From Candidatus Parcubacteria bacterium (GTDB taxonomy: Bacteria; Patescibacteriota; Minisyncoccia; Phycocordibacterales; JBAYGS01): 61,899 nucleotides of DNA. Both the position numbers and the translations under genes were made by a program. The stretch is taken from the NCBI GenBank assembly GCA_039795895.1, contig JBDKKW010000003.1, forward strand, positions 1-61,899. The letters run 5' to 3'. The notes below the pieces were generated by a model. It did not search any database. It was not told the origin of the DNA and saw only the letters and a list, made by a program, of their open reading frames with translations. Positions 2,254 to 53,539 of this stretch are shown one piece after another. Position 1 is the first letter of the stretch; the number at the start of each line of letters is the position of its first letter.

Positions 2254-4380
2254 ATGTCTCTACGGATATTCAAAATTAACGCACTTCTTGTATCACTAGT
2301 ATTCAGTGTGTACTTCGGTGTGTGTGTATCTCGAGTCAATGCAGCGACGAAAATAAATGCACCAGCTTCTGTACGTCTGACGAGTGGACTGGTTGATTAT
2401 TGGCCGTTTGATGCTCCGTATGTTAGTTTTGTCTCTAACACCGCCACCGATATTGCGAGTGGCGCTAAAAATGCCACGTTTGTGAGTATGGCTACGAGTA
2501 GTGCTCCTGTGGCGGGCAAGCTTGGGCAAGCCTTGTATTTTGCGGGAGTGAGTAGTCATTTGAATGTGAGTAATCTTGATAGTGTTGGCGGTACCCAGAC
2601 CGTCTCTTTTTGGTTGAAGCGGGGCCGTACATCGTCCGGAGGATTTGAGGGTGTTATTGGTTGTAACACGACTGGAGGATGGGGTATCGGTATTGATGGG
2701 GTGACCATCAACGGAAGATTATATAATGGAAAAATCGGTACCTCTGCACACTACACAACAGGAACTATTCTTGATACCAAGTGGCACCATGTGGTCCAGA
2801 CTCGCGACGGTGCGACTGTGCAATTCTATATCGATGGTGCATTTGATTCGAGTCAGGCTGATACTGATACCTACAGCTGTACGAGTGGTACAGCGACTTA
2901 TACCATCGGAGATATTAACAGTGGTGCGCCGTTGCTCGGGACGATTGATGATCTTCGTGTATACAACAGAATCTTGAGTACGACCGAAATCACTTCGTTG
3001 TACAAGCTCGGCCAAGCCACCATTCAAGCTTCAAAAAAGACTACTCGCACCGACGGACTGATTGGTATTTGGACGTTTGATGGCAAAGATATTACCAATG
3101 GAAGAATTCTCGATCGCAGTGGCAACGGGCGAGATTTGTATATGAACAATATTGCAACCTCATCTTTTTATGTTTCCGGTAAAAATGGACAAGCGGGGAG
3201 TTATAGTGGAAACAGTAGTCGCAAGGAATACGCCATGTCGTCGGCGACCACATGGGGAATTTCGACTGTCTATAGTATGTCGGCATGGATAAAAACTTCA
3301 GCAAGTAATGCTGCTTCGGTCGTTGCTTTGGGAAGGCAGAGTGTACTCGATGAACCAATGATTTATATGTCGCCCACCAACGCCGCCTTTTATATTTCTT
3401 GTGGTGCAGGATGTTATACCGGTATGGTGGGTAATGTGACAACCATCAACAATGGGAAGTGGCATCATATTGTGGTGACTTCTTCGGCACACGCTTGCGC
3501 AAGCTTGCGTATCTATGTTGATGGGGTTCTCGAAGGAAATACTTGTAGCACCGCTGGAGCAGCCACTGCTCCAAGTGATGGCTCTAATCGGTATTTATCA
3601 GTAGGTTTCCGTTCGTGGCCATATCCGACCGGAGCGTCAGAACTTTTTAATGGATTGATTGATAATGTCCGACTCTACAACAAAGCACTATCTGCTCAGG
3701 AGGTCACTGCACTATATAAGGCCGAGAGTGCGTCAAAGGTAAATGCCTCTCAAAATGCTCAGCTTGCTTCAGGTTTGGTGGGACTCTGGTCGCTCGATGG
3801 AGCAGATGCAATACGAGGTTCGTTTAAGGATCGTAGTGGTCAGAGCAGAGATGGATACATTGTCGGTACGATTGCCTCATCTACTTTTTATGTCCCAGGT
3901 AAGATTGGGCAATCGGTGAAATTTGCTGCGAATGACAGCTATATCAGTGTCCCCAATCTCGACACAAACACCCTGAGTGTTTTTGCGTGGATCAAGGTGA
4001 GTGGTGCCACCGACCAAGTGATTGTGGATGTGCTCGGTAGTGGTGGGTTTGGTTTTTATCTTGGAGGTGGAGCTGGAGGTACCTTGCGCCTAACAAAACG
4101 TGGTGGTTCTGAGGTGGCTTCTACGGGTACTGTTTCTGGGGGTGTGTGGCATCATGTTGGTGTGGTGTATGATGGCGCCAATGCTAAATTTTTTATCGAC
4201 GGTGTTCCGAGTGGTGCCCCGGCATACACACAAACGTTTTCAAGTGGATCAACTCGCTATGGTATCGGAGGTATTGAAGCTGCTGGGTTTACCATGAACG
4301 GGTGGCTCGATGATGTTCGATTGTACAACAGAACATTGTCTCAAGATGAGATCACACGCCTCTATAGTATTGGCAGATAA
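2254..4380 (+). CDS. Secreted protein with three LamG / concanavalin-A-like lectin modules
   Basis: 708-aa ORF with a signal-like N-terminus (INALLVSLVFSVYFGVCVSRVNA). Three ~230-aa modules each end in a LamG_3-type motif (IDDLRVYNRILSTTEITSLY, IDNVRLYNKALSAQEVTALY, LDDVRLYNRTLSQDEITRLY) and each carries a W-H-H-[VI] strand. Confidence 0.8.
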   Translation: MSLRIFKINALLVSLVFSVYFGVCVSRVNAATKINAPASVRLTSGLVDYWPFDAPYVSFVSNTATDIASGAKNATFVSMATSSAPVAGKLGQALYFAGVSSHLNVSNLDSVGGTQTVSFWLKRGRTSSGGFEGVIGCNTTGGWGIGIDGVTINGRLYNGKIGTSAHYTTGTILDTKWHHVVQTRDGATVQFYIDGAFDSSQADTDTYSCTSGTATYTIGDINSGAPLLGTIDDLRVYNRILSTTEITSLYKLGQATIQASKKTTRTDGLIGIWTFDGKDITNGRILDRSGNGRDLYMNNIATSSFYVSGKNGQAGSYSGNSSRKEYAMSSATTWGISTVYSMSAWIKTSASNAASVVALGRQSVLDEPMIYMSPTNAAFYISCGAGCYTGMVGNVTTINNGKWHHIVVTSSAHACASLRIYVDGVLEGNTCSTAGAATAPSDGSNRYLSVGFRSWPYPTGASELFNGLIDNVRLYNKALSAQEVTALYKAESASKVNASQNAQLASGLVGLWSLDGADAIRGSFKDRSGQSRDGYIVGTIASSTFYVPGKIGQSVKFAANDSYISVPNLDTNTLSVFAWIKVSGATDQVIVDVLGSGGFGFYLGGGAGGTLRLTKRGGSEVASTGTVSGGVWHHVGVVYDGANAKFFIDGVPSGAPAYTQTFSSGSTRYGIGGIEAAGFTMNGWLDDVRLYNRTLSQDEITRLYSIGR

Positions 4381-4447: not shown

Positions 4448-6520
4448 ATGGCAAAAAACCCCACCAACAATTTTATGTATTTACTGAGATTCTTTGTCGG
4501 TGTGCTTGTGTTGGTGCCTGTTTTTGCGCATGCTTCGGTCAAGACTAATGTGTCGACTCCGCCAGTGAGTAATCGGGGACTTGTAGGCTACTGGTCGTTT
4601 AACGGTACTGATGTGAATTCCACGACCGTATTTGATCGCAGTACGTACGCATACGATGGCACCCTTCACGGTATGGGGACAAAATACTCACTTTCTGGAA
4701 AAGTGGGTCAGGCGTTTTCTTTTGATGGTACCGGTGCGTATATATCACTCCCAAATCTTGATATGCAAGCGCCTTTGTCGTGGTCATTTTGGATTAAGCG
4801 GGGGAGGATTGGTCACGCGAACGATGATTTTTTTGGTGGTGACAGCGCGGGTTCGTGGGGTCTTGGCTTCAACGCAGACAATACACTCTTTCTTACAAAA
4901 GTGGGGGTTAATAGTGTAAGCTCGACGGGCACTATCACCGATATGAAGTGGCATCATGTGGCGGTGACTTATGATGGTACGAATGTACGATTTTATTTTG
5001 ACGGTGTTCTTGATTCTGCTCCAAGCTATACGAGTGGTACCTATACTAGTAGTGGGGGTGCGTACGCGATGGGGAGGGTAAATGTTTCGGCGTATTTTAG
5101 TGGCGCACTTGATGAGGTGCGGATGTATAGTCGGGTGTTGTCGGCATCAGAGGTGAGGACCTTGTACGGTAGTGGGTCGGTAAAGATTGCGAGTCCTTCA
5201 TCGAGTAATGCGGTGGTACCCAATGGTCTGATTGGTCTCTGGTCGTTTAATACCAATGACGTTGTGAATGGGACACTGATCGATCGAAGTGTTTCTGGAA
5301 ATACTGCGTATTTGTACAACACGGCAACATCGACGGTCTACAGTACTGGACGTATCGGTCAGGGGCTGACTTTTGATGGTGCCGATGATTATGCAAAGAC
5401 GCTCGCCACGACTTGGGGGGTGACCAATACTCTCTCGATGTCGGCGTGGATAAAAACAACGAGTAATACGTTGTCGATCGCATCGCTGGGCCACACCACA
5501 GTCACCGATGAAGCTTTGATGTATGTGTATGGTGGTACGGCGGCGCTGTATTTTTCTCAGGGGACTGGTGTGTACACAGGTGTCAATGGCACAAAGATAG
5601 TGAATGACGGCGTGTGGCACCATGTGGTGGTTGTGGCTACGGGACCGTCTGTTGCGTGCGCGAATATACGGATATATGTCGATGGTGTGCGTGATACTGA
5701 ACATTGTATTGCAGAAAGTGTCTCTAGTATCAGTGATGCTACGCCTCGTAATTTTTTCATCGGATGGCGTTCATGGGGTGGGGGCGGATTTGAATTGTAT
5801 AATGGGAGTATCGATGATGTTCGGTTATATAATCGCGTGCTTACTTTAGGAGAGATAGGACAACTATATCGTTCGAGCGGTGTTACCAATCTCAATGTGT
5901 CTCAGAATAAAAAGAGCATTGGGGGACTTGTGGGATTGTGGTCATTTGATGGGTCAGATATGGTGACAGGGACCACCGCCTACGATCGGAGTGGAAATGG
6001 GTATAATGGAGCACTGCATGGATTGGCGACTTCCAGTGTTGCGGTCGGCAAGGTGGGACAGGCGCTCCGATTCAATGGAGTCGACAATTATATTAGCGTC
6101 CCTAATTTTGATATGAGCACTTTGAGTGCTTTTGGGTGGGTCAATATTACTCCCGGGAGTACTCAGGCGATTATTGATAGTCTCGCTAATGGCGGATGGG
6201 GTTTGTATATTGCGTCAGACGACACGGTGCGTTTTACCAAGCGGGGTAGTGCCGAAGTTGTCTCAGTGGGTACGGTATCGCGTGGATGGCACTATATTGG
6301 TGTCACCTATGATGGTGCAAATGCACGATTGTATATTGATGGTGTGCTCGACAGTGCGCCAGCCTTTAGTCAAACATTTTCTAATGGCGCGATGGGGTAT
6401 GGTATCGGTGGCTTGAGTTCTGCTGGGTTTACAATCAACGGCCGTCTCGATGATGTGCGTTTGTACAATAGAGTGCTCTCTTCGACTGAAGTAAGGACGC
6501 TGTACAATACAGAAAAGTAG
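4448..6520 (+). CDS. Secreted triple-LamG protein, tandem paralog of 2254..4380
   Basis: 690-aa ORF with a signal-like N-terminus (FFVGVLVLVPVFAHA). Same three-module layout (LDEVRMYSRVLSASEVRTLY, IDDVRLYNRVLTLGEIGQLY, LDDVRLYNRVLSSTEVRTLY). Confidence 0.8.
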   Translation: MAKNPTNNFMYLLRFFVGVLVLVPVFAHASVKTNVSTPPVSNRGLVGYWSFNGTDVNSTTVFDRSTYAYDGTLHGMGTKYSLSGKVGQAFSFDGTGAYISLPNLDMQAPLSWSFWIKRGRIGHANDDFFGGDSAGSWGLGFNADNTLFLTKVGVNSVSSTGTITDMKWHHVAVTYDGTNVRFYFDGVLDSAPSYTSGTYTSSGGAYAMGRVNVSAYFSGALDEVRMYSRVLSASEVRTLYGSGSVKIASPSSSNAVVPNGLIGLWSFNTNDVVNGTLIDRSVSGNTAYLYNTATSTVYSTGRIGQGLTFDGADDYAKTLATTWGVTNTLSMSAWIKTTSNTLSIASLGHTTVTDEALMYVYGGTAALYFSQGTGVYTGVNGTKIVNDGVWHHVVVVATGPSVACANIRIYVDGVRDTEHCIAESVSSISDATPRNFFIGWRSWGGGGFELYNGSIDDVRLYNRVLTLGEIGQLYRSSGVTNLNVSQNKKSIGGLVGLWSFDGSDMVTGTTAYDRSGNGYNGALHGLATSSVAVGKVGQALRFNGVDNYISVPNFDMSTLSAFGWVNITPGSTQAIIDSLANGGWGLYIASDDTVRFTKRGSAEVVSVGTVSRGWHYIGVTYDGANARLYIDGVLDSAPAFSQTFSNGAMGYGIGGLSSAGFTINGRLDDVRLYNRVLSSTEVRTLYNTEK

Positions 6521-7979: not shown

Positions 7980-8447
7980 ATGAAAAAAGATTTTAAACCA
8001 AGAATTTTGTTTGCCACTGACCATGCTGGGTTTGAGTTGAAAAATCAGCTCCTGGCTTTTGTAAAAGAGCTTGGGTATGAGACTGAAGATATGGGCGCAT
8101 ATACGTTTGATGCAAATGACGACTACCCGGGAATTATGGCGCCGGTCGGTTTTGCAGTGGGGAGCAATCCAGAAAAGTGCAAAGCGATTATTTTAGGTGG
8201 CTCGGGACAAGGGGAGGCGATAGTGGCGAACCGATTTCCGGGCGTACGGGCAGTGGTCTACTACGGAGGAAATCTTGAAATTATCAAACTTTCTCGAGAG
8301 CACAATGATGCCAACATTCTCTCTCTCGGCGCTCGTTTTTTGACCGTCGACGAAGCTAAGGAAGTGGTAAGGCTTTGGCTTGAGACTGCTTTTTCTGGTG
8401 AGGAAAGACATATTCGACGCTTGGAACAAATAGATCATATCTCGTAG
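7980..8447 (+). CDS. rpiB: Ribose-5-phosphate isomerase B
   Basis: RpiB/LacAB family pattern (ILFATDHAGFELK, GGSGQGEAIVANR, HNDANILSLGARF). Its stop TAG 8445-8447 is the first unit of the heptamer array. Confidence 0.9.
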   Translation: MKKDFKPRILFATDHAGFELKNQLLAFVKELGYETEDMGAYTFDANDDYPGIMAPVGFAVGSNPEKCKAIILGGSGQGEAIVANRFPGVRAVVYYGGNLEIIKLSREHNDANILSLGARFLTVDEAKEVVRLWLETAFSGEERHIRRLEQIDHIS

Positions 8448-8477
8448 ACATTAGTAGTTAGACACTAGACATTAGCC
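8445..8477. repeat. TAG-heptamer array, left arm (TAGACAT TAGTAGT TAGACAC TAGACAT TAGCC)
   Basis: Period-7 units. TAG at 8445, 8452, 8455, 8459, 8466 and 8473 covers all three frames. 8445-8463 is the perfect reverse complement of 8848-8866. Confidence 0.85.
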
Positions 8478-8481
8478 AGAA

Positions 8482-8853
8482 ATGAAAATTCATAATTATG
8501 AAAAGCTTGTGGTCTGGCAAAAATCAATGGACTTAGTCCAGGAGGTGTATACTTTGTCTGAGAAATTCCCCAAGACAGAATTATACGGTTTAACAAATCA
8601 AATACGAAGGAGTGCTGTATCAATACCCTCAAATATAGCCGAAGGGAGTCATCGAAAGACGGATAACGATTTTTAGCAATTTTTGTGTATCGCTTCCGGA
8701 TCAGCTGCTGAGCTACAGACGCAAATTAAGATTGCTCGGAGATTGGGCTTTTGTGTTTCTTTGATAGCGGAGTATGGTAAAATTGAGTCACTTATAGTAG
8801 AAGTAAGAAAAATGCTGTTCGGGATGGTCGATAATCTTAAGTCTAATGTCTAA
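8482..8853 (+). pseudogene. Four-helix-bundle protein gene (23S rRNA intervening-sequence protein / Avd-like family) interrupted by an in-frame TAG
   Basis: MKIHNYEKLVVWQKSMDLVQEVY..IRRSAVSIPSNIAEGSHRKTDNDF, then TAG (8674-8676), then QFLCIASGSAAELQTQIKIARRLGF.. in the same frame to TAA 8851-8853. Together they give a family-typical ~123 codons. Confidence 0.75.
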
Positions 8854-8876
8854 CTACTAATGTCTAACGTCTAGTC
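8841..8876. repeat. TAA-heptamer array, right arm (GTCTAAT GTCTAAC TACTAAT GTCTAAC GTCTAGT C), inverted relative to 8445..8477
   Basis: TAA at 8844, 8851, 8858 and 8865 and TAG at 8872 (exact period 7) cover all frames. The array ends 2 nt before the rpe ATG. Confidence 0.85.
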
Positions 8877-12494: not shown

Positions 12495-12526
12495 GTAGAC
12501 ACGGGGTAGTAGTTAGACGTTAGACA
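12495..12526. repeat. Solo TAG-heptamer patch (..GTAGTAG TTAGACG TTAGACA)
   Basis: TAGTAGTTAGAC (12507-12518) is identical to 8452-8463 and 50905-50916. TAG at 12496, 12507, 12510, 12514 and 12521 covers all three frames. Confidence 0.65.
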
Positions 12527-12530
12527 AGAA

Positions 12531-12569
12531 AAATCCCCCAGAAATTGCAGAGCAATTTCTGGGGGATTT
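12531..12569. terminator. Bidirectional hairpin terminator between convergent tkt and kinase genes
   Basis: AAATCCCCCAGAAATTGC / loop AGAG / CAATTTCTGGGGGATTT. The arm sequence recurs at 48586..48620. Confidence 0.75.
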
Positions 12570-12615
12570 AAGTCTTCTAATTGTTGGTTGTAAATTGTAA
12601 GTTGTATGTTTGTCC

Positions 12616-18575: not shown

Positions 18576-18627
18576 TTCATATCTATCTTGCTAGAAGCTA
18601 GAAGCTTCTTCTGGTATACTTCCCCCT

Positions 18628-46579: not shown

Positions 46580-46690
46580 AATTCTTAATTATCTCTTACT
46601 TTAATGAGGAGATTCATCTTTATTATCTCAGTTACTAGTGCGAGATTACGGCTTATTGTCTATCGTCTTTCGTTATGCTATATTTCTCCC

Positions 46691-46978
46691 ATGACTCCAG
46701 AGGAACGATCTTTGTTGGAACGAACACTGTCTCTTGCGCAAGAGAATAACAAGATGCTACGGAAGATACGCAATAGTGCGCGAATCTCTTCGATATTGCG
46801 TCTCTTTTACTGGATTATTGTTCTGGGGTTGTCGTTTGGGTCATATTACTTGATTCAGCCGTACATTGAGCAACTTGGAAAAGCGTACGGAGTTTTGAAT
46901 GACGGAGTAAATACCGTCAAAAGTGCTCAGAGTCAGTTTGGAGATATTCCAAATCTCTTGAAATCCATCAAGAAATAA
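46691..46978 (+). CDS. Hypothetical membrane protein (95 aa)
   Basis: MTPEERSLLERTLSLAQENNKMLRKIRN followed by one TM (ILRLFYWIIVLGLSFGSYYLI). Confidence 0.5.
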   Translation: MTPEERSLLERTLSLAQENNKMLRKIRNSARISSILRLFYWIIVLGLSFGSYYLIQPYIEQLGKAYGVLNDGVNTVKSAQSQFGDIPNLLKSIKK

Positions 46979-48533: not shown

Positions 48534-48585
48534 AGGGGAAGTATATAGTAAAAAGTACAAAGTATGAAGTATATAATACGGGGAA

Positions 48586-48620
48586 AAGCCCCAGAAATTG
48601 TGGGGCAATTTCTGGGGCTT
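48586..48620. terminator. Hairpin terminator downstream of valS; its arms are shared with 12531..12569
   Basis: AAGCCCCAGAAATTG-TGGGG-CAATTTCTGGGGCTT. Confidence 0.7.
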
Positions 48621-48661: not shown

Positions 48662-50845
48662 CTATGCTTCAGGCCACTTCTCGATCATCAGTAGTTTCTT
48701 GTTTGCGATTGGTAGGTGTTCCCAAATCGTCTCAGTCACAAACGGCATAAATGGATGGAGGAGTTTGATACAGGTGGTGAGGATGTAGAAGAGGGTGAGT
48801 TGGCGTGAGGTTTTGATAATGGCGTCGGTGCCTGCAATCTTTGCTTTTGAATCTTCAATGATAATGTCAGCAAACGTGTGCCAAACATAGTGATAGATTT
48901 TTTCAGCAGACATATAGAAGCGGTAGTCTTCGAGATCTTTGGTGATGTCGGCAACGAGGGTGTGGAGCTCAGTGATTAGTTTGGTGTCCTCGGGAGTTAA
49001 GCCATTGTGGTCCGGAGCATTTGTCGACAAGATTTGAATACCCTCACATGAAGTGAGTACAAAACGGGTGATGTTCCAAAGTTTATTTCCAAAATTCTTG
49101 TATCCCTTTATTTTATTTTCTGAAAGTGATAGGTCGGTGCCGGGAGTGTTGCCCACGACAAGGCCAATACGGAGCGCGTCAGTGCCGTATTTGACGATAA
49201 GGTCGGTAGGGTTGATCACATTACCCTTACTCTTACTCATCTTTTTGCCCGATGCATCATTTACCAAGCCGTGGAGATATACCGTGTGGAATGGAGCCTT
49301 GCCAGTGAGATAGAGGCCAAAGATCACCATACGCGGAATCCATTTAAAGATAAGGTCCGAGCCGGTCTCCATCACGTCGGTTGGGTAGAATTGCTTCCAA
49401 TCACTACCTTCGGAATATCCGAGGGAGAGGAGTGGCCACTGTCCAGATGAGAACCAGGTATCAAAAGTGTCGGTATCGGCACGGAGTGTTGCCTTGCACT
49501 TTGGACAAGTGGTGAGTTCGTTTTCTAGATCAGGCTCGGCAAAACTACACGAGTCACAAATTTTGGCTGGAATCGGAATGCCCCAGACGATTTGTCGAGA
49601 AATATTCCAGTCGAGGGTATTTTTCATCCAGTAGAGGAAGATCTTGCGGTAATTATCTGGCTCAAAGATGACTTGTTTTGCATCAACAGCTTTGATCGCT
49701 TTCTCTGCAAGGGGGGCCATTTTTACAAACCACTGCGGAAGAATCTGTGGCTCGATAACGGTCTCGCATTTGTAGCAGACGGGGACATTATGCACGTATT
49801 TCTCATCGACTTTCACGAGTAGGCCTTTGGCTTTGAGCTTCTCGACGATTTTTGGTCTCGCATCGGTGATTTTCATACCGGCAAATTCGCCAGCAATAGG
49901 GAGGAGCTTGCCACGCATATCGATAACTTGCTCGCGGTCGAGTTTGTGTCGCTCCGCAATGCCAAAGTCGATGGCGTCGTGCCATGGGGTGATAGTCATC
50001 ACACCGGTACCAAATTCCATATCAATCGCTTCATCCTTGATGACGGTTGCAGTGATGGGGCCGTTGATCCATTCGAGATCAATCTTTTGTCCTTGTTTGT
50101 ATTCCGCATAGCGCTTATCGTCTGGATGCATCACCACATACTTATCTCCAAATTTTGTCTCAGGGCGGGCGGTACCGATGGTGAATGGACCGTATTTGAA
50201 ATAATAAAATGGATCAGTCTTTTCTTTGCTCTCGGTTTCTACGTCAGAAAGGGAAGTGGCGTGTTTTGAGCACCAATTTACGATACGTGAACCGCGATAG
50301 ACGAGACCGTCATCAAACATCTTCTTAAATGTGCGGTGAGTTTCTGCGATTACTTTCGGGTCGAGAGTGAATTTTTCCCGAGACCAGTCGCATGAAGCGC
50401 CAAGTGCGCGTACCTGTGCTTCCATGTTCGCTTTATTCTCAAGTGTGAAGGCGAGAATTTCTTTGTAGAGGTCCTGAGGATCCATTTTGAATCGAGAACG
50501 ACCTTCTTTCTCAAGCTTTTTTTCGTACACGATTTGTGTCTCAAAACCAGCGTGATCAGCTCCGGGTACCCACAGAGTCTTGAAGCCTCGCATACGTTTG
50601 AAGCGAATCATGATGTCTTCGAGAGTGATGGCGAGAGCGTGGCCGACGTGGAGGTTGCCGTTGGCATTTGGTGGAGGCATTACGATGGTAAACGGTCGCT
50701 GGTGTCTGATAGGAAGTCGGTCGGGATTAAAAAAACCACTGTCGTGCCAGAGCTTGTAGATGCGAGTCTCATGCTCCTCGGCGTTGTATGGCTTGAGGAA
50801 TGCTTGGGGGATATTTGGGTCTTGGTAGGGTTTATTCTCAGTCAT
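48662..50845 (-). CDS. valS: Valyl-tRNA synthetase (short form)
   Basis: PPPNANGNLHVGH (HIGH), GKKMSKSKGN (KMSKS), editing-domain TTRPET-like block GTARPETKFGD. ATG 50845 (MTENKPYQDPN). Confidence 0.95.
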   Translation of the reverse strand: MTENKPYQDPNIPQAFLKPYNAEEHETRIYKLWHDSGFFNPDRLPIRHQRPFTIVMPPPNANGNLHVGHALAITLEDIMIRFKRMRGFKTLWVPGADHAGFETQIVYEKKLEKEGRSRFKMDPQDLYKEILAFTLENKANMEAQVRALGASCDWSREKFTLDPKVIAETHRTFKKMFDDGLVYRGSRIVNWCSKHATSLSDVETESKEKTDPFYYFKYGPFTIGTARPETKFGDKYVVMHPDDKRYAEYKQGQKIDLEWINGPITATVIKDEAIDMEFGTGVMTITPWHDAIDFGIAERHKLDREQVIDMRGKLLPIAGEFAGMKITDARPKIVEKLKAKGLLVKVDEKYVHNVPVCYKCETVIEPQILPQWFVKMAPLAEKAIKAVDAKQVIFEPDNYRKIFLYWMKNTLDWNISRQIVWGIPIPAKICDSCSFAEPDLENELTTCPKCKATLRADTDTFDTWFSSGQWPLLSLGYSEGSDWKQFYPTDVMETGSDLIFKWIPRMVIFGLYLTGKAPFHTVYLHGLVNDASGKKMSKSKGNVINPTDLIVKYGTDALRIGLVVGNTPGTDLSLSENKIKGYKNFGNKLWNITRFVLTSCEGIQILSTNAPDHNGLTPEDTKLITELHTLVADITKDLEDYRFYMSAEKIYHYVWHTFADIIIEDSKAKIAGTDAIIKTSRQLTLFYILTTCIKLLHPFMPFVTETIWEHLPIANKKLLMIEKWPEA

Positions 50846-50887
50846 GTCGACCAATAGTAGCAAAAATAGGGCTATTTTGCCATAGAA

Positions 50888-50925
50888 TACAGACAAGAAG
50901 TGGTTAGTAGTTAGACGGCAGATCA
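50888..50925. repeat. Intergenic patch combining CAGACAAGAAG (27/43-kb family) and TAGTAGTTAGAC (TAG-heptamer family)
   Basis: ATACAGACAAGAAGTGGTTAGTAGTTAGACGGCAGATCAG lies between the tsaD stop and the valS start. Confidence 0.6.
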
Positions 50926-50956
50926 GAAGGAGCAAAAATGATGCTTGGGTTTGAAA

Positions 50957-52189
50957 TTAGAAGCTCAAATTACCTTTTGCGACAAGTAATGGGGTCGCTG
51001 TGTGGTCGGGGGTCTGGGTGAGGTGTTGCATATAGCCCGCACAAGCAATCATCACTGCATTGTCGGTCGAGAGGGCGAGAGATGGGAAGAAGAGTTTGAT
51101 ATGCGGATGTTCGGTCACGAGTGCTTCAAATGCCTTGCGGATGTGGGTGTTGGCGATCACGCCGCCTCCGATAATAAGTGTCTGTGCGCCGTAGTGTTCA
51201 AGTGCTTTTTTTGTTTTAGTGACGAGGACCTCGGTCACCGCATCTTCAAATTCGCGAGCGATGACTTCTTTGTCTTTTTCGGTGAGGGTTTTTAGTTCTT
51301 GTGTAAGGTAGAGCACTGCTGTTTTGAGACCAGAAAAAGAAAAATCAAAATCTTTGGTGTGGAGCATCGGACGTGGGAGAGGATAAGGGGTTGGTTGACC
51401 AGTGTTCGAGAATCTCGATTTTGTTGCTAGTCTTGAAATCTCTGGACCGCCGGGATAGGGTAGGCCGAGCATGCGGGCTACTTTATCAAAAGCTTCACCG
51501 ACAGCATCGTCCCGGGTTTGGCCGATGTTGGTGTATGTGCCCCAGCTTTCGATCAAGATGAGCTCGGTGTGGCCTCCGGAAATAAGGAGGGCGAGAGCGG
51601 GGAAAAGGATTGGGGAGTTGTTAGTTGATAGTTTACGGTCTTTAGTCTGAGGATCAGAAATTAGAAATTTTGACTTAGTAATTTCTCTGTCTACCAAAAC
51701 AGAGACGATATGTCCCTCCATGTGATTGACGGGTATGATGGGAATATTCCAAAGGAGGGAAAGTGCTCGAGCGAAATTGATGCCGACCCAAAGTGCTGGT
51801 TCGAGTCCGGGTCCGACAGTGACCGCGATGGCATCGATGGAGGGTTTTTCTATTTTTGGAAGATACGCCAAGAATTGTTCTTGTAGCTCCGGTTCTTTTG
51901 TTAGAATGGCTTTAATGTCTTCGACCTGTTCATTAGAAATTAGAAATTGGGAATTAGAAATTCCGAAACCCGATTCTTCCAAAGTTTTCTTAAACAAGGG
52001 AATCAGGTTTCGGCTGTGTTCTCGTTTTGCGAGTGCGGGGAAGACACCTCCGTATTGTTCGTGAATTTTAATCTGAGAATTAAGTGCATTTCCGAGCACC
52101 GAAAAAGCGGGTGTATTTTTATCACCGGTCGCGGATACTATGCATACTGCGGTTTCGTCGCAGGAGGTTTCGATGCCGAGGATGAGCAT
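50957..52189 (-). CDS. tsaD: tRNA N6-adenosine threonylcarbamoyltransferase TsaD with two in-frame insertions
   Basis: GIETSCDET, VNHMEGH, ISGGHTEL, GGGVIAN. ATG 52189 (MLILGIETS). It carries extra segments GFGISNSQFLISNEQ.. and EITKSKFLISDPQTKDRKLSTN relative to E. coli TsaD. Confidence 0.9.
   Translation of the reverse strand: MLILGIETSCDETAVCIVSATGDKNTPAFSVLGNALNSQIKIHEQYGGVFPALAKREHSRNLIPLFKKTLEESGFGISNSQFLISNEQVEDIKAILTKEPELQEQFLAYLPKIEKPSIDAIAVTVGPGLEPALWVGINFARALSLLWNIPIIPVNHMEGHIVSVLVDREITKSKFLISDPQTKDRKLSTNNSPILFPALALLISGGHTELILIESWGTYTNIGQTRDDAVGEAFDKVARMLGLPYPGGPEISRLATKSRFSNTGQPTPYPLPRPMLHTKDFDFSFSGLKTAVLYLTQELKTLTEKDKEVIAREFEDAVTEVLVTKTKKALEHYGAQTLIIGGGVIANTHIRKAFEALVTEHPHIKLFFPSLALSTDNAVMIACAGYMQHLTQTPDHTATPLLVAKGNLSF
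51618..51687. repeat. Period-7 array inside tsaD (plus strand TTGTTAG TTGATAG TTTACGG TCTTTAG TCTGAGG ATCAGAA ATTAGAA ATTTTGA CTTAGTA ATTTCTC)
   Basis: Read directly from the sequence. It encodes the second TsaD insertion on the minus strand. Confidence 0.75.
51932..51966. repeat. Five tandem heptamers inside tsaD (ATTAGAA ATTAGAA ATTGGGA ATTAGAA ATTCCGA)
   Basis: Read directly from the sequence. It encodes GISNSQFLISN on the minus strand. Confidence 0.85.
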
Positions 52190-52335
52190 GGGTTTTCGGC
52201 AGAAGAGGATTAGGTCACGAATATTTTGTTCGCCGTCGCTCACAAAATTTCTTGACCTCGACTCGCCGGTTTTTCTTGCTAGAAAAACATGACTCCGTCT
52301 TTCAAATCCTCACAAAAGCTTCGCTTTTTTACCGG

Positions 52336-52408
52336 TGGGCGGTAGAGGATTTGAACCTCTGACATTCACAACGTCAATGTGACGCTCTACCAACTGAGCT
52401 AACCGCCC
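52336..52408 (-). tRNA. tRNA-Val (anticodon GAC)
   Basis: The minus strand reads GGGCGGT TA GCTC AGTTGGTA GAGC G TCACA TTGACGT TGTGA ATGTC AGAGG TTCAAAT CCTCT ACCGCCC A. Confidence 0.9.
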
Positions 52409-52459
52409 GTGCCAGAAGAATAGCAGGTTTTTGTCGCTCGGGGAAGCCCTTTTAGAAAA

Positions 52460-52490
52460 GAAAAAATGGCAGGCCGAGTACGGCCTGCCA
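52460..52490 (-). terminator. Hairpin downstream of the dGTPase-like gene
   Basis: TGGCAGGCCG-AGTA-CGGCCTGCCA, with an A-run on the plus strand (a T-run on the minus strand). Confidence 0.7.
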
Positions 52491-52498
52491 TTGTGAAA

Positions 52499-53539
52499 TT
52501 ACCAGTTGAGATCGAGTTCAATCCCATTGATCGCAAACAAATGTTCGCGATCCGTATTCCTGATGATTTCTCCAAGGCCTGTATCCATCAGGACCCTGGA
52601 ATTGAGCATATGCGGGTCATCGATCAGACGAGAGACTTCTTCGTCTGTCAGAAGTGCAATTCCAAGCCAGGGCGGAATCAGCTCACTTCGATTGATGAAG
52701 TCGTAGATCGGATCAAGGAACCGGGCGACATTTTGTTCAACTACGCGTTCGTATTCGGCATACATCAGTCCACGAAGCTTGTTGAACATGAGGGCTGGTT
52801 CGGAAGTCTCAAAATGTACCCGACCAGCTTTGGCTGACTCTTCGCAGAGTGCCATGATGGTGCGAAAGGTGCGGTCTCGCTGATAGCCACCAAACCAAGC
52901 CATCACTTTCTCGAGTTCCGAACTGCAACGCCACTCCAGTCTTTTGAAGTCGTTGTAGTCGGCGAAGAGGTAGGCGATCTTGTCGGCATAACGTACCACC
53001 CAGGCCTCTTGAGTCATGGTCTCAGACGTATTTTTGCCTGAGTGTCGCCACATACCATCGAGTGTTGCGTGGGTGAGGTTGAGTCCTCTGCCCTTACGTT
53101 CGATGTGTTGGGCGATCACCACTCCAAATACTTCATGGGTGAATTTTGGGTTCCATTTCTTTTGGAGGTAGTTTTCACCTTGGTGGCCAAATGGCACGTG
53201 GCCAATGTCGTGACCCAAAGCGATCGCTTGGGTGAGGTGGATATTGAGTCCCAGATGTTCGGTAATGCGAATCGAGTGGGCAACTACTTCGTTTACATGT
53301 GTTGCCCGATTGCGGATGTGGGGTGTGTGATGCGATGATGCCACTTGATTTTTGCCACCCATTCGCCGAGAGGCTTTGGACGACAAAATCACTGAGCTAT
53401 CATCCACAAATTGATCGCCGATACGGAAGTCGTTCTCGTAGGTCTTCCGACGATGACTTCCATTGGTCTTAAGATGAGCGAGTGCTCCGGCCGTAGCCAA
53501 AAAACGCTTCAAGAGTTCTTGATCTGGTATTGCTTGCAT
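52499..53539 (-). CDS. dGTP triphosphohydrolase-like HD-domain protein (short form)
   Basis: RNRATHVNEVVAHS, IALGHDIGHVPFGHQGE, RYADKIAYLFADYND. Confidence 0.8.
   Translation of the reverse strand: MQAIPDQELLKRFLATAGALAHLKTNGSHRRKTYENDFRIGDQFVDDSSVILSSKASRRMGGKNQVASSHHTPHIRNRATHVNEVVAHSIRITEHLGLNIHLTQAIALGHDIGHVPFGHQGENYLQKKWNPKFTHEVFGVVIAQHIERKGRGLNLTHATLDGMWRHSGKNTSETMTQEAWVVRYADKIAYLFADYNDFKRLEWRCSSELEKVMAWFGGYQRDRTFRTIMALCEESAKAGRVHFETSEPALMFNKLRGLMYAEYERVVEQNVARFLDPIYDFINRSELIPPWLGIALLTDEEVSRLIDDPHMLNSRVLMDTGLGEIIRNTDREHLFAINGIELDLNW

Follow-up and report, generated by a model that had tools for sequence, protein, structure and literature searches.

Heptamer repeat DNA inside two loops of the tsaD gene of a Candidatus Parcubacteria bacterium

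How can repeat DNA carrying stop codons come to lie inside an essential gene? The question is raised by a stretch of 61,899 nucleotides from an uncultured Candidatus Parcubacteria (CPR) bacterium (assembly GCA_039795895.1, contig JBDKKW010000003.1, hereafter the window), in which the gene for TsaD, an essential tRNA-modification enzyme, contains two segments of 7-base tandem repeats. According to the original prediction, TsaD carries two extra segments relative to E. coli TsaD, both encoded by period-7 DNA, because an intergenic TAG/TAA heptamer repeat invaded the gene and only variants with the in-frame stops mutated to sense codons survived, in a way reminiscent of Rickettsia palindromic elements (RPEs). 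The observation was confirmed by our analysis. Its interpretation, however, was supported only in part.

Period-7 arrays in the tsaD coding sequence

The features of the gene and its immediate surroundings are the following.

50957..52189, minus strand: tsaD coding sequence (410 aa; ATG at 52189-52187, TAA at 50959-50957)
51932..51966, minus strand: array 1, five heptamers TCGGAAT TTCTAAT TCCCAAT TTCTAAT TTCTAAT, coding G76-N86 (GISNSQFLISN) in a coil at the start of insertion 1
51684..51705, minus strand: 9-bp hairpin inside the coding sequence (TCTCTGTTT / AGACAGAGA, loop TGGT), immediately 5' of array 2, its 3' arm being the first part of insertion 2
51653..51680, minus strand: array 2 core, TACTAAG TCAAAAT TTCTAAT TTCTGAT, coding TKSKFLISD
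51611..51652, minus strand: array 2 tail, a second, decayed heptamer series ACTAAAG ACCGTAA ACTATCA ACTAACA ACTCCCC, coding QTKDRKLSTNNSP
50949..50962, minus strand: two-unit remnant TTCTAAT TTCAAAC containing the tsaD stop codon; close relatives lack it, and its significance is weak
50904..50916, minus strand: copy of the window's dispersed heptamer motif, GTCTAAC TACTAA, in the tsaD-valS spacer

The identity of the gene is secure. Homologues start at MLILGIETS, and one of them (P0001) is 100% identical, whereas a GTG at 52243 gives only the longest ORF. A phmmer search of the PDB matched TsaD with E=1.6e-71 (8iey) and 1.6e-67 (4ydu), and the predicted structure (mean pLDDT 90.9) matched YgjD/TsaD in a Foldseek search with a TM of 0.89 and E=2e-30 (3zet_B/4ydu_A). 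The metal-binding HxxxH motif and the C-terminal Asp of the TDN motif, expected of a TsaD/Kae1/Qri7 (PF00814) t6A synthase, are present: H156, H160 and D376 are invariant in 20 and in 106 aligned sequences.

Array 1 was called by TRF at 51932-51962, with period 7, 4.4 copies, 83% matches and a score of 48. Its lag-7 matches are 21 of 28, a value reached by 0 of 5000 shuffles. Taking the ATG at 52189 as the start, the 7-spaced triplets GAA, TAA, CAA, TAA, TAA sit in codon phases 1, 2, 0, 1, 2, such that only CAA (51947-51949) is in frame. In array 2, AAA (51668-51670) and CAG (51647-51649) are in frame, and TAA, TAA and TGA are out of frame. The codon phases are thus as originally predicted. 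Only the four core units of array 2 resemble the array 1 unit, the remaining part being the decayed series. Even so, the whole 70 nt has 33 of 63 lag-7 matches, reached by 0 of 5000 shuffles, and the tail alone has 21 of 35, reached by 1 of 5000. The tail was also picked up, at 51607-51641, in the scan for period-7 arrays described below, and the corresponding position in other TsaDs carries (ACGCTAW)n, translated as LNAIRYTLNA.

The two arrays share 17 of 18 bases, AATTTCTAATTTCT[A/G]AT, which gives the peptide FLIS[ND] twice; 6 matches to TTCTAATTTCTAAT at up to 2 mismatches were found against 0.61 expected, all on the coding strand. In-frame reading predicts peptides such as GISNSQFLISNEQVEDIK and SKFLISDPQTK. 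Period 7 is the only period from 4 to 12 that reaches 20 of 28 self-matches anywhere in the window; at 18 of 28, 7 period-7 arrays are found, against 0.45 in local shuffles.

Both segments are absent from solved bacterial TsaDs, query residues about 83-113 and 171-193 being unaligned. In the structure model, residues 73-85 (array 1) are coil with pLDDT 85-91, whereas the array 2 region has a pLDDT of about 51, below 50 at residues 176-179, and is predicted to be disordered. The claim that both extra segments are encoded by period-7 DNA was nevertheless an overstatement, as only 11 of roughly 38 extra residues of segment 1 are heptamer-coded. The two segments are old, Parcubacteria-wide insertions with a conserved, non-periodic helical part, and the arrays occupy only short, hypervariable sub-segments of them.

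The hairpin next to array 2 has a folding energy of -10.8 kcal/mol. The same register is seen in 9 other TsaD genes with different sequences, where 84% of cells are paired against 47-58% in slid controls, and 10 of 12 pairs show compensatory changes. This set was chosen because each member folded, so that its prevalence is overstated, and the hairpin is absent from TsaDs with a short loop 2. The arrays themselves fold no better than shuffles (z from -0.45 to +1.35).

Distribution of the arrays among TsaDs and outside tsaD

We compared the window with homologous tsaD loci, designated by L numbers. Array 1 DNA is almost identical in the window, L014, L081, L082 and L083, although the flanks differ and the TsaDs carrying it are only about 58% identical. 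At columns with identical amino acids, the same codon is used at 9/9, 8/9 and 9/10 positions inside the array, against fractions of 0.43, 0.41 and 0.34 outside it, and the Leu is always the minor codon CTA. The translated signature occurs in 14 of 106 TsaDs in loop 1 and in 8 of 106 in loop 2, and the nearest neighbour lacks it in 10 of 14 and 6 of 8 cases. Presence in TsaD is therefore patchy, and conserved at the DNA level rather than the protein level.

The closest relatives (78-84% aa identity) have alignable flanks, but a 42-nt (6x7) patch of loop 1 carries a different heptamer array in them, TAACAAC AAACAAC TCACAAC AAACAAC, sharing only 7 of 42 positions with the window. Relative to them the window shows no length gain. 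In loop 2, homologous arrays occur in the close relatives L084-L086.

A scan of metagenome DNA showed that the 17-mer CAATTTCTAATTTCTAA occurs in at least 120 stretches, with unrelated flanks. None of the 80 inspected was in tsaD; most were intergenic, not spanned by any long ORF, and several lie 3-40 nt from the starts of rplE, atpC, rnpA or yidD. The same array DNA is abundant outside coding regions in CPR metagenomes. The pattern was chosen to begin with CAA, and cannot show that intergenic copies usually carry a stop at that position. An inverted partner array lies nearby in 14 of 78, against 2 of 215 controls, and in the minimum-energy fold 21 of 78 have the array paired with downstream sequence. 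Between 14 and 21 of 78 thus form arms of long palindromes. Some are long stems between genes of an operon, such as rpmH-rnpA in L142. In-frame hairpins occur in the TsaD loops of L208 and L209.

The same array is read in frame, as ISNFQFLISK, in a PF00849 pseudouridine synthase and in a MetRS, and other heptamer units occur in ValRS and in a MurD-like ligase. One genome carries the unit at three sites: tsaD, a split phosphoglucomutase and a third locus. By contrast, in about 185,000 residues of ORF translations from CPR tsaD neighbourhoods, the QF[LP]IS[NK] signature was found only in TsaD, 7 of 7 times. This at first suggested a tsaD-specific element, a view overturned by the metagenome scan, although it could indicate tsaD-specific constraint.

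In 535 kb of CPR loci, 30 arrays have period 7, against 0-4 for periods 4-13 and 9 for period 14. The rate is 5.6 per 100 kb, against 1.2 in non-CPR loci. A scan of genome contigs with a TsaD alignment returned at least 80 loci, of which, among those 80, only about 30 were CPR; they were useful as period-7 controls but contained few FLIS-type loops.

In the window, the AATTTCT unit occurs as an array only in tsaD, and no donor was seen there. Its intergenic arrays use related but different units, GTCTAAY/TACTAAY and AAGTATR, and do not support the view that the window's own intergenic repeat had entered tsaD. The dispersed motif of the tsaD-valS spacer has 4 copies in the window against 0.06 expected. 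The other arrays are the following.

8445..8475, plus strand: left arm of a 31-nt inverted repeat built of heptamers (TAGACAT TAGTAGT TAGACAC TAGACAT), 90% complementary to 8836-8866
8836..8873, plus strand: right arm, the intergenic stop-codon heptamer array GTCTAAT GTCTAAC TACTAAT GTCTAAC GTCTAGT, ending 5 nt before ATG 8879; the two arms flank a PF05635 gene
48538..48575, minus strand: intergenic heptamer array (TATACTT/CATACTT units) directly upstream of the next gene's ATG; an array of the same unit family sits at the corresponding valS-PrsW spacer in L085

A further sequence, TATACTTCCCC, found upstream of two start codons, is not significant (2 matches, reached by 8 of 100 shuffles).

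Origin of the arrays

We favour, with moderate confidence, the view that the tsaD arrays are copies or remnants of a dispersed family of heptanucleotide tandem repeats (unit AATTTCY), common in Parcubacteria/CPR genomes, lying mostly between genes and close to gene starts, and forming in about a fifth of the cases inspected the arms of long hairpin-forming palindromes. In a coding region, a copy would persist only if the net length change keeps the frame (whole arrays come in 21-nt quanta, and the loop 1 patch is 42 nt, or 6 units), if the one unit in three whose TAA would be in frame reads a sense codon (CAA or AAA), and if the site is a tolerant surface loop. TsaD would offer two such sites, inside old lineage-specific insertions. 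Once resident, arrays would turn over quickly by slippage or replacement, such that close relatives carry different units while distant lineages can carry almost the same DNA, and the product (..ISNSQFLISN.., ..KSKFLISD..) would be a passenger low-complexity linker, not a selected peptide motif. Our data establish the periodicity, the frame pattern, the DNA-level identity across distant TsaDs, the patchiness, the dispersal outside tsaD, the in-frame copies in other enzymes and the loop location. We infer from them the direction of transfer, from the intergenic pool into the gene, the mechanism of spread and the neutrality of the peptide.

Some observations sit less easily with this view. The tsaD copies are solo arms without an inverted partner. 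No target-site duplication and no pair of empty and filled sites differing in length was found, nor, without a dedicated search, any transposase; the only finding of this kind is the replacement of the 42-nt patch at equal length. The covarying hairpin also suggests selection at the nucleic-acid level rather than neutral passenger DNA. Moreover, that exactly the in-frame stops are missing must be true of any intact ORF, and the direction of change, TAA to CAA or the reverse, is not shown: a relative with 78% identity has stop-free CCAA units in the homologous loop 2 array, so out-of-frame TAA could have arisen by C-to-T change.

This last point is the core of an alternative that we consider possible but unlikely, in which the arrays are a local microsatellite, born and maintained by replication slippage in two loops tolerating any sequence, without exchange with intergenic repeats. 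From an ancestral stop-free AATTTCC unit, AT-biased C-to-T change would create TAA wherever it falls out of frame, which alone yields the observed pattern. The loop 2 array of the relative L085, homologous to array 2, is indeed AATTTCC AATACCC AATTCCC AATTTCC, stop-free in all frames; other TsaD loops hold perfect stop-free arrays, for example (GTTCCAA)x4 in L082; FPIS (CCA) and FLIS (CTA) versions are both common; and the loops differ greatly in length and sequence among 120 homologues. However, slippage explains neither the 30-nt DNA identity between TsaDs whose synonymous sites are otherwise largely randomised, nor the same sequence at many unrelated intergenic loci and in MetRS and a pseudouridine synthase, nor the divergence of loop 1 from the closest relatives. 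A selected nucleic-acid signal, such as a platform for an RNA- or DNA-binding protein, an RNase processing or stability element, or an internal promoter or terminator element, with intergenic copies performing the same function, would account for conservation of DNA over protein, for the covarying hairpin at a fixed codon position, for intergenic copies at gene boundaries, often a few nt from a start codon, and for the recurrence of the same few unit families across lineages. It remains doubtful, since the array is absent from the closest relatives and most TsaDs, the array regions fold no better than shuffles, and there is no Rfam match. Least likely, and very improbable in our view, is that FLIS[ND] is a selected peptide, for instance a docking site shared by enzymes acting on tRNA or rRNA, with the DNA periodicity secondary. 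The peptide does recur in two TsaD loops, MetRS and a pseudouridine synthase, all RNA-handling enzymes, and array 1 is modelled with fairly high confidence. But the codons are identical, the motif is missing from most TsaDs including the nearest relatives, array 2 is predicted to be disordered, and the same DNA is mostly non-coding. Any in-frame reading of (AATTTCT)n must give the cyclic peptide FLISNF* whichever frame it enters, so the shared peptide follows from the DNA alone.

Other identities were rejected. TTTCTAA resembles a 7-nt anticodon loop with U36-A37-A38, and GGAA-UUUCUAA-UUCC could form a stem-loop in the window, but the stem is not conserved in L081 or L082, and the regions fold no better than shuffles. 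In a search of Rfam 15 over 50800-52500 only tRNA-Val passed, with nothing in the arrays at E of 1 or less. A programmed -1 frameshift site is not supported either: read in frame, the array shows no X XXY YYZ heptamer, the only stable hairpin lies upstream of array 2, and the array regions fold no better than shuffles.

Comparison with known repeats and implications

RPEs (Ogata et al. 2000, as summarised in PMC10969869) are likewise short dispersed repeats found between genes and inserted in frame into unrelated housekeeping genes, where they are translated as extra segments at positions compatible with the fold. The comparison is apt, because many intergenic copies here are arms of long palindromes and some TsaD loops carry in-frame hairpins. 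However, RPEs are defined elements of about 100-150 bp belonging to ten sequence families in Rickettsia, whereas here the unit is a 7-nt tandem repeat with a stop codon in it, the tsaD copies are 28-35-nt solo direct arrays rather than palindromes or MITE-like elements with terminal inverted repeats, mobility being not shown, and the host is a CPR bacterium; no sequence relation to RPEs exists or was expected.

The short tandemly repeated repetitive (STRR) sequences of heterocystous cyanobacteria (Mazel et al. 1990) are also tandem heptanucleotides with several unit families, dispersed and mostly intergenic, and tolerated inside an essential gene, an STRR being reported inside the RNase P RNA gene (Vioque 1997); neither repeat has a known function. 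Their units (CCCCAGT and similar) differ from those found here (AATTTCY, GTCTAAY, AAGTATR, AAGCTAW and ACGCTAW), as does the phylum, and frame-filtered coding copies or arrays serving as arms of palindromes are not known to be part of the STRR description. Tandem repeats of Borg elements (PMC9879509) occur between genes and inside ORFs, evolve fast, arise independently in homologous proteins and yield low-complexity or disordered segments, but in ORFs their unit lengths are divisible by three and give perfect amino-acid repeats. Here the frame rotates, one unit in three must lose its stop, and the hosts are bacterial chromosomes and core enzymes. Heptanucleotide phase-variation tracts (for example neuO in E. 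coli K1 and the HMW1A promoter in Haemophilus) also lie inside or next to a coding region and matter modulo three, but are long perfect repeats in dispensable surface-related genes. The tsaD tract is short and imperfect, lies in an essential, conserved enzyme, and meets TAA in both alternative frames within the array. Literature searches on heptamer, tandem or palindromic repeats in CPR, Patescibacteria or Parcubacteria found nothing relevant.

It is possible, though we regard it only as a tentative reading, that these genomes carry a previously undescribed class of repeat element built from heptanucleotide arrays and hairpins, either actively spread by a sequence-specific mechanism or kept by selection as a nucleic-acid signal, for example long stems for RNase III-type processing between genes or a binding platform with a 7-nt register. 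It would have colonised loops of core enzymes such as TsaD, aminoacyl-tRNA synthetases and a pseudouridine synthase, and the covarying hairpin plus array inside tsaD would then be a working part of gene expression, not debris.

In practice, such segments can mislead alignments, phylogenies and gene calling, because ORFs become extended or split at arrays. They also mark tolerant surface loops, and the 17-30-nt conserved arrays and the covarying hairpin give concrete targets for metatranscriptomic and metaproteomic tests. CPR bacteria have small genomes and are usually regarded as poor in repeats. These results suggest a repeat family dispersed across many Parcubacteria, with a fixed 7-nt register, which would account for the odd low-complexity peptides in CPR proteins (..SNFQFLISK.., ..NDQFPISKQIPN.., ..LNAKRYTLNA..), for much of the length variation of TsaD in this group, and for some split genes, for example the phosphoglucomutase in L082. 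It also extends the Rickettsia observation of selfish DNA translated inside essential genes to a second, unrelated lineage with a different kind of repeat.

Period-7 arrays in the tsaD gene

The minus-strand ORF at 50957-52243 is tsaD. Its longest form starts at GTG 52243, but homologues and the database protein start at ATG 52189 (MLILGIETS), which gives a protein of 410 aa, and the 18 extra codons are probably not translated. Protein P0001 is 100% identical to it, and the best 120 homologues are from Parcubacteria/Patescibacteria MAGs. The product matches solved TsaD/YgjD proteins by sequence (E=1.6e-71) and by predicted fold (TM 0.89; model mean pLDDT 90.9). The gene order is tRNA-Val, tsaD, valS, then a gene whose counterpart in relatives is a PrsW-type protease. 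The features of tsaD considered here are the following, all on the minus strand.

51932-51966, array 1, five heptamers read on the coding strand as TCGGAAT TTCTAAT TCCCAAT TTCTAAT TTCTAAT
51653-51680, the four units of array 2 that resemble TTCTAAT
51611-51652, the rest of array 2, a different heptamer series
51684-51705, a hairpin inside the CDS, directly 5' of array 2
50949-50962, a two-unit remnant, TTCTAAT TTCAAAC, in which the tsaD stop codon lies; the closest relatives end differently (CTC TAG CAC.. and TTC TAA ACC..)

In array 1, TRF reported period 7, with 4.4 copies and 83% matches. Lag-7 identity was 21 of 28, a value reached by no shuffle in 5000, whereas other lags gave 0.12-0.48. 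The triplets at the TAA position are in codon phases 1, 2, 0, 1, 2, and only the phase-0 unit reads CAA, at 51947-51949. In array 2, AAA at 51668-51670 and CAG at 51647-51649 are in frame, while TAA, TAA and TGA are out of frame. Although only four of its units resemble TTCTAAT, the whole 70 nt still has 33 of 63 lag-7 matches, reached by 0 of 5000 shuffles. The two arrays share 17 of 18 bases, AATTTCTAATTTCT[A/G]AT, which is why both give FLIS[ND]. The original prediction, that heptamer arrays lie in frame in tsaD with sense codons exactly at the in-frame units, was confirmed as an observation, including the triplets and phases of both arrays.

Period 7 stands out in the window as a whole. 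It is the only period between 4 and 12 that reaches 20 of 28 self-matches, and it does so at three places, 8839-8873, 48537-48579 and 51927-51968. At 18 of 28, seven period-7 arrays were found, against 0.45 in local shuffles. Three or four of them are in coding sequence: two in tsaD, a weak one inside the ORF at 46604-46978, which is only putatively coding, and one at 8839-8873, which partly overlaps the end of a PF05635 pseudogene.

The extra segments of the protein are old, whereas the arrays are not. Alignment with E. coli TsaD and with solved structures left query residues about 76-113 and 171-193 without a counterpart, and all Parcubacteria TsaDs (380-476 aa) have insertions at both places. 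Insertion 1 has a conserved, non-periodic part (..ILEREPELLEQFLEFIPTIEKP..) that is modelled as two helices with pLDDT above 90, and array 1 codes only for the coil in front of it, G76-N86. Insertion 2 is a loop with pLDDT of about 51, and below 50 at residues 176-179, LISD. Thus, the claim that both extra segments are encoded by period-7 DNA holds for segment 2, but for only about a third of segment 1.

Distribution of the arrays among TsaD genes and elsewhere

Among the 120 homologues, many carry in either loop peptides such as ISN[SF]QF[LP]IS[NK], NDQFPISKQ, SKFQVPN or LNAKRYTLNA. In those loci whose DNA was retrieved, the loop-1 array is nearly the same as in the window: L081 reads AATTCCTAATTCCCAATTTCTAATTTCTAAT, L082 is the same apart from the last base, L083 reads AATTTCTAATTCTCAATTTCTAATTTCTAAT, and L014 is similar. 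The flanking DNA, however, is unrelated at synonymous sites. At alignment columns with identical residues, the same codon is used in 9/9, 8/9 and 9/10 positions inside the array, whereas the fractions are 0.43, 0.41 and 0.34 in the rest of the gene. The Leu is always CTA, although CTA is a minority Leu codon in all four genes. The translated signature is patchy, occurring in 14 of 106 sequences in loop 1 and 8 of 106 in loop 2, and the nearest neighbour by core identity lacks it in 10 of 14 and 6 of 8 cases.

The closest relatives of the window (loci L084-L086, 78-84% identity) have well-aligned flanks. In loop 1, however, a 42-nt patch (six heptamers, 14 codons) reads TAACAAC AAACAAC TCACAAC AAACAAC in L085, and shares only 7 of 42 positions with the window, as counted on the aligned sequences. 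In loop 2 the relatives have a homologous array, which in L085 is the stop-free version, AATTTCC AATACCC AATTCCC AATTTCC, coding EISNTQFPISN. Other TsaD loops hold other units: (GTTCCAA)x4 in L082, (GTTAYAA)x3 in L081, (CTATAAC/CTAAAAC) in L024 and (ACGCTAW)x4 in L208.

In 535 kb of CPR loci around tsaD, we found 30 arrays of period 7, whereas the other periods from 4 to 13 gave 0-4 and period 14 gave 9. The rate is 5.6 per 100 kb, against 1.2 in 820 kb of non-CPR loci. Long, nearly perfect heptamer arrays were nevertheless found in these control loci, (CCCTCAT)n/(TCCCCAT)n in a Competibacteraceae MAG (L064, 8049-8162 and 8920-8979) and (CTCGGAA)n in a Lysobacter (L077, 11019-11128), so that dispersed heptamer repeats are not limited to CPR and cyanobacteria. 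Units tend to be shared within a genome: within-locus pairs differ by at most one position in 22% of cases, and between-locus pairs in 9%. A few unit families, AATTTCY, GTCTAAY, AAGTATR, AAGCTAW, ACGCTAW and AACCTAW, recur across genomes. In locus L010, five arrays of one unit (TTACGAA/TTCGTAA) lie within 7 kb, at 243-296, 1283-1334, 1577-1612, 4269-4311 and 6122-6165: two in a MurD-like ligase, one intergenic, one in tsaD and one in ValRS. All four coding copies are in the orientation that has no stop in any frame.

An exact scan of metagenome contigs for CAATTTCTAATTTCTAA gave at least 120 stretches. Among the 80 loci inspected, none lies in tsaD, and most are not spanned by any long open frame. 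Many lie 3-40 nt from the start of a housekeeping gene, in either orientation, for example rplE in L138, atpC in L163, rnpA in L142 and yidD in L154, as we identified them by reading the N-terminal sequences. Many show the architecture [AATTTCY]n - AAACAATG.. - centre - ..CATTGTTT - [GAAAATT]n. In 21 of 78, at least 12 of the 17 array bases are paired with downstream sequence in the minimum-energy fold, and 15 of 78 fold at z below -3. An inverted-orientation run lies within 250 nt in 14 of 78 cases, against 2 of 215 control windows. Two loci contain the array in frame within real enzymes, as AISNFQFLISKNKK in a PF00849 pseudouridine synthase (L087) and as KISNFQFLISKQIPNPK in a MetRS (L100). 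Any in-frame reading of (AATTTCT)n gives the cyclic peptide FLISNF*, with * replaced by Q or K, and the shared peptide therefore follows from the DNA.

In one Taylorbacteria-like genome the unit occurs at three places: tsaD loop 1, an (ATTAGAA)x4 array, and a third locus. The (ATTAGAA)x4 array (L082, 17598-17640) has TAG/TAA stops, sits between the PGM_PMM_I part and the PGM_PMM_II-IV part of a phosphoglucomutase, and is followed by CC-ATG, such that the gene is called as two ORFs. It may be a gene split by an array, or a pseudogene.

Hairpins and intergenic heptamer arrays

Hairpins go with the arrays. Some TsaD loops contain in-frame hairpins between heptamer units: L208 has AATTTCC-CCGCCTGCGCCAAAGCTTCGGCGGGCAGG-CAATTTCC, coding PRLRQSFGGQA, and L209 has AATTTCTAA-CCCGCCTGCGGAACGGGCAGG-TTTCCAATTTCC, coding PPAERAG. 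A similar GCCTGC...GCAGGC hairpin sits in the centre of the intergenic element of the metagenome locus L165. TsaD loop 1 of L209 (1966-2070) and its clade, which includes proteins P0033 and P0108, is a perfect 13-bp palindrome (TTTACTTGGAGGC-TCG-GCCTCCAAGTAAA) translated as LYLEARPPSK.

In the window, the CDS forms a 9-bp hairpin (51705-51697 with 51692-51684; -10.8 kcal/mol) right after the HMEGH motif. Its 3' arm is the start of insertion 2, so the insertion begins as an inverted copy of the preceding codons. Nine other TsaD genes form a 9-14-bp hairpin in the same codon register with different sequences. These ten genes, all with a long loop 2, were chosen because each folded on its own, and TsaDs with a short loop 2 lack the hairpin. 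On their alignment, 84% of cells pair, against 47-58% when the partner column is slid, 10 of 12 pairs show compensatory changes, and no shuffle in 500 reached the observed covariation score.

Outside tsaD, heptamer arrays and related sequences are present at the following positions of the window.

8445-8475 and 8836-8866, the arms of a 31-nt inverted repeat built of heptamers, 90% complementary
8836-8873, the array containing the right arm, GTCTAAT GTCTAAC TACTAAT GTCTAAC GTCTAGT, then CCC-ATG
8451-8463, 8848-8860, 12506-12518 and 50904-50916, four copies of the 13-mer GTCTAACTACTAA (two heptamers), the last in the tsaD-valS spacer
12540-12560 and 48593-48613, two terminator-like hairpins, next to heptamer arrays at 12575-12609 and 48538-48575
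48535-48545 and 18615-18625, the 11-mer TATACTTCCCC upstream of two genes

The two arms of the inverted repeat flank a gene of the 23S rRNA intervening-sequence protein family (PF05635, E=1.8e-38; ATG 8482), which has an in-frame TAG at 8674-8676 and whose last codons and stop lie in the right-hand array. The whole resembles an IVS-type cassette with a long processing stem, but it sits between protein genes. The 13-mer was found four times against 0.06 expected, and all four sites fall in spacers between the ORFs listed for the window. The two terminator-like hairpins share the stem AGAAATTG/CAATTTCT (2 found, 0 expected), which is the same octamer as in the tsaD array. The intergenic units differ from the tsaD unit by one or two positions in seven (TTCTAAT against GTCTAAT and TACTAAT). 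The 11-mer ends 1-2 nt before the ATG of the two genes, where no Shine-Dalgarno-like GGAGG is present. This might indicate a -10-like box and very short or absent leaders, but the count is not significant, as 8 of 100 shuffles reach it.

Relation to known repeats and interpretation

RPEs are the closest functional analogue, being dispersed, palindromic, and in frame in housekeeping genes (PMC10969869). Cyanobacterial STRR sequences are the closest in form, as they are dispersed heptanucleotide tandem repeats. Borg tandem repeats are a recent parallel for repeats that create disordered protein segments (PMC9879509). The present case differs by the 7-nt register with a stop codon in the unit, the solo arms in tsaD, the host lineage, and the covarying hairpin in the CDS. 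In the literature searched, no description of heptamer arrays or palindromic repeats in CPR/Patescibacteria was found.

It had been proposed that an intergenic stop-codon heptamer repeat invaded the coding region, and that only variants with the in-frame stop removed survived. Our results support this interpretation in part. The presence of sense codons exactly at the in-frame units is shown by the sequence, but it is also required of any intact ORF, and a direction of change from stop to sense can only be inferred, since a stop-free AATTTCC array, as in L085, plus C-to-T pressure would give the same picture. Rival readings, each less likely than the one given below, are a purely local microsatellite, a functional nucleic-acid signal, and a selected peptide. 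The covarying hairpin and the conservation at the DNA level keep the functional-signal reading alive.

The best-supported reading is that the tsaD arrays belong to a dispersed heptamer/hairpin repeat family of CPR genomes. In this view, they persist inside the gene because three filters are satisfied, namely the frame, which would explain the 21-nt quanta and the 42-nt patch, the absence of an in-frame stop, and a tolerant loop, and the peptide is a passenger.
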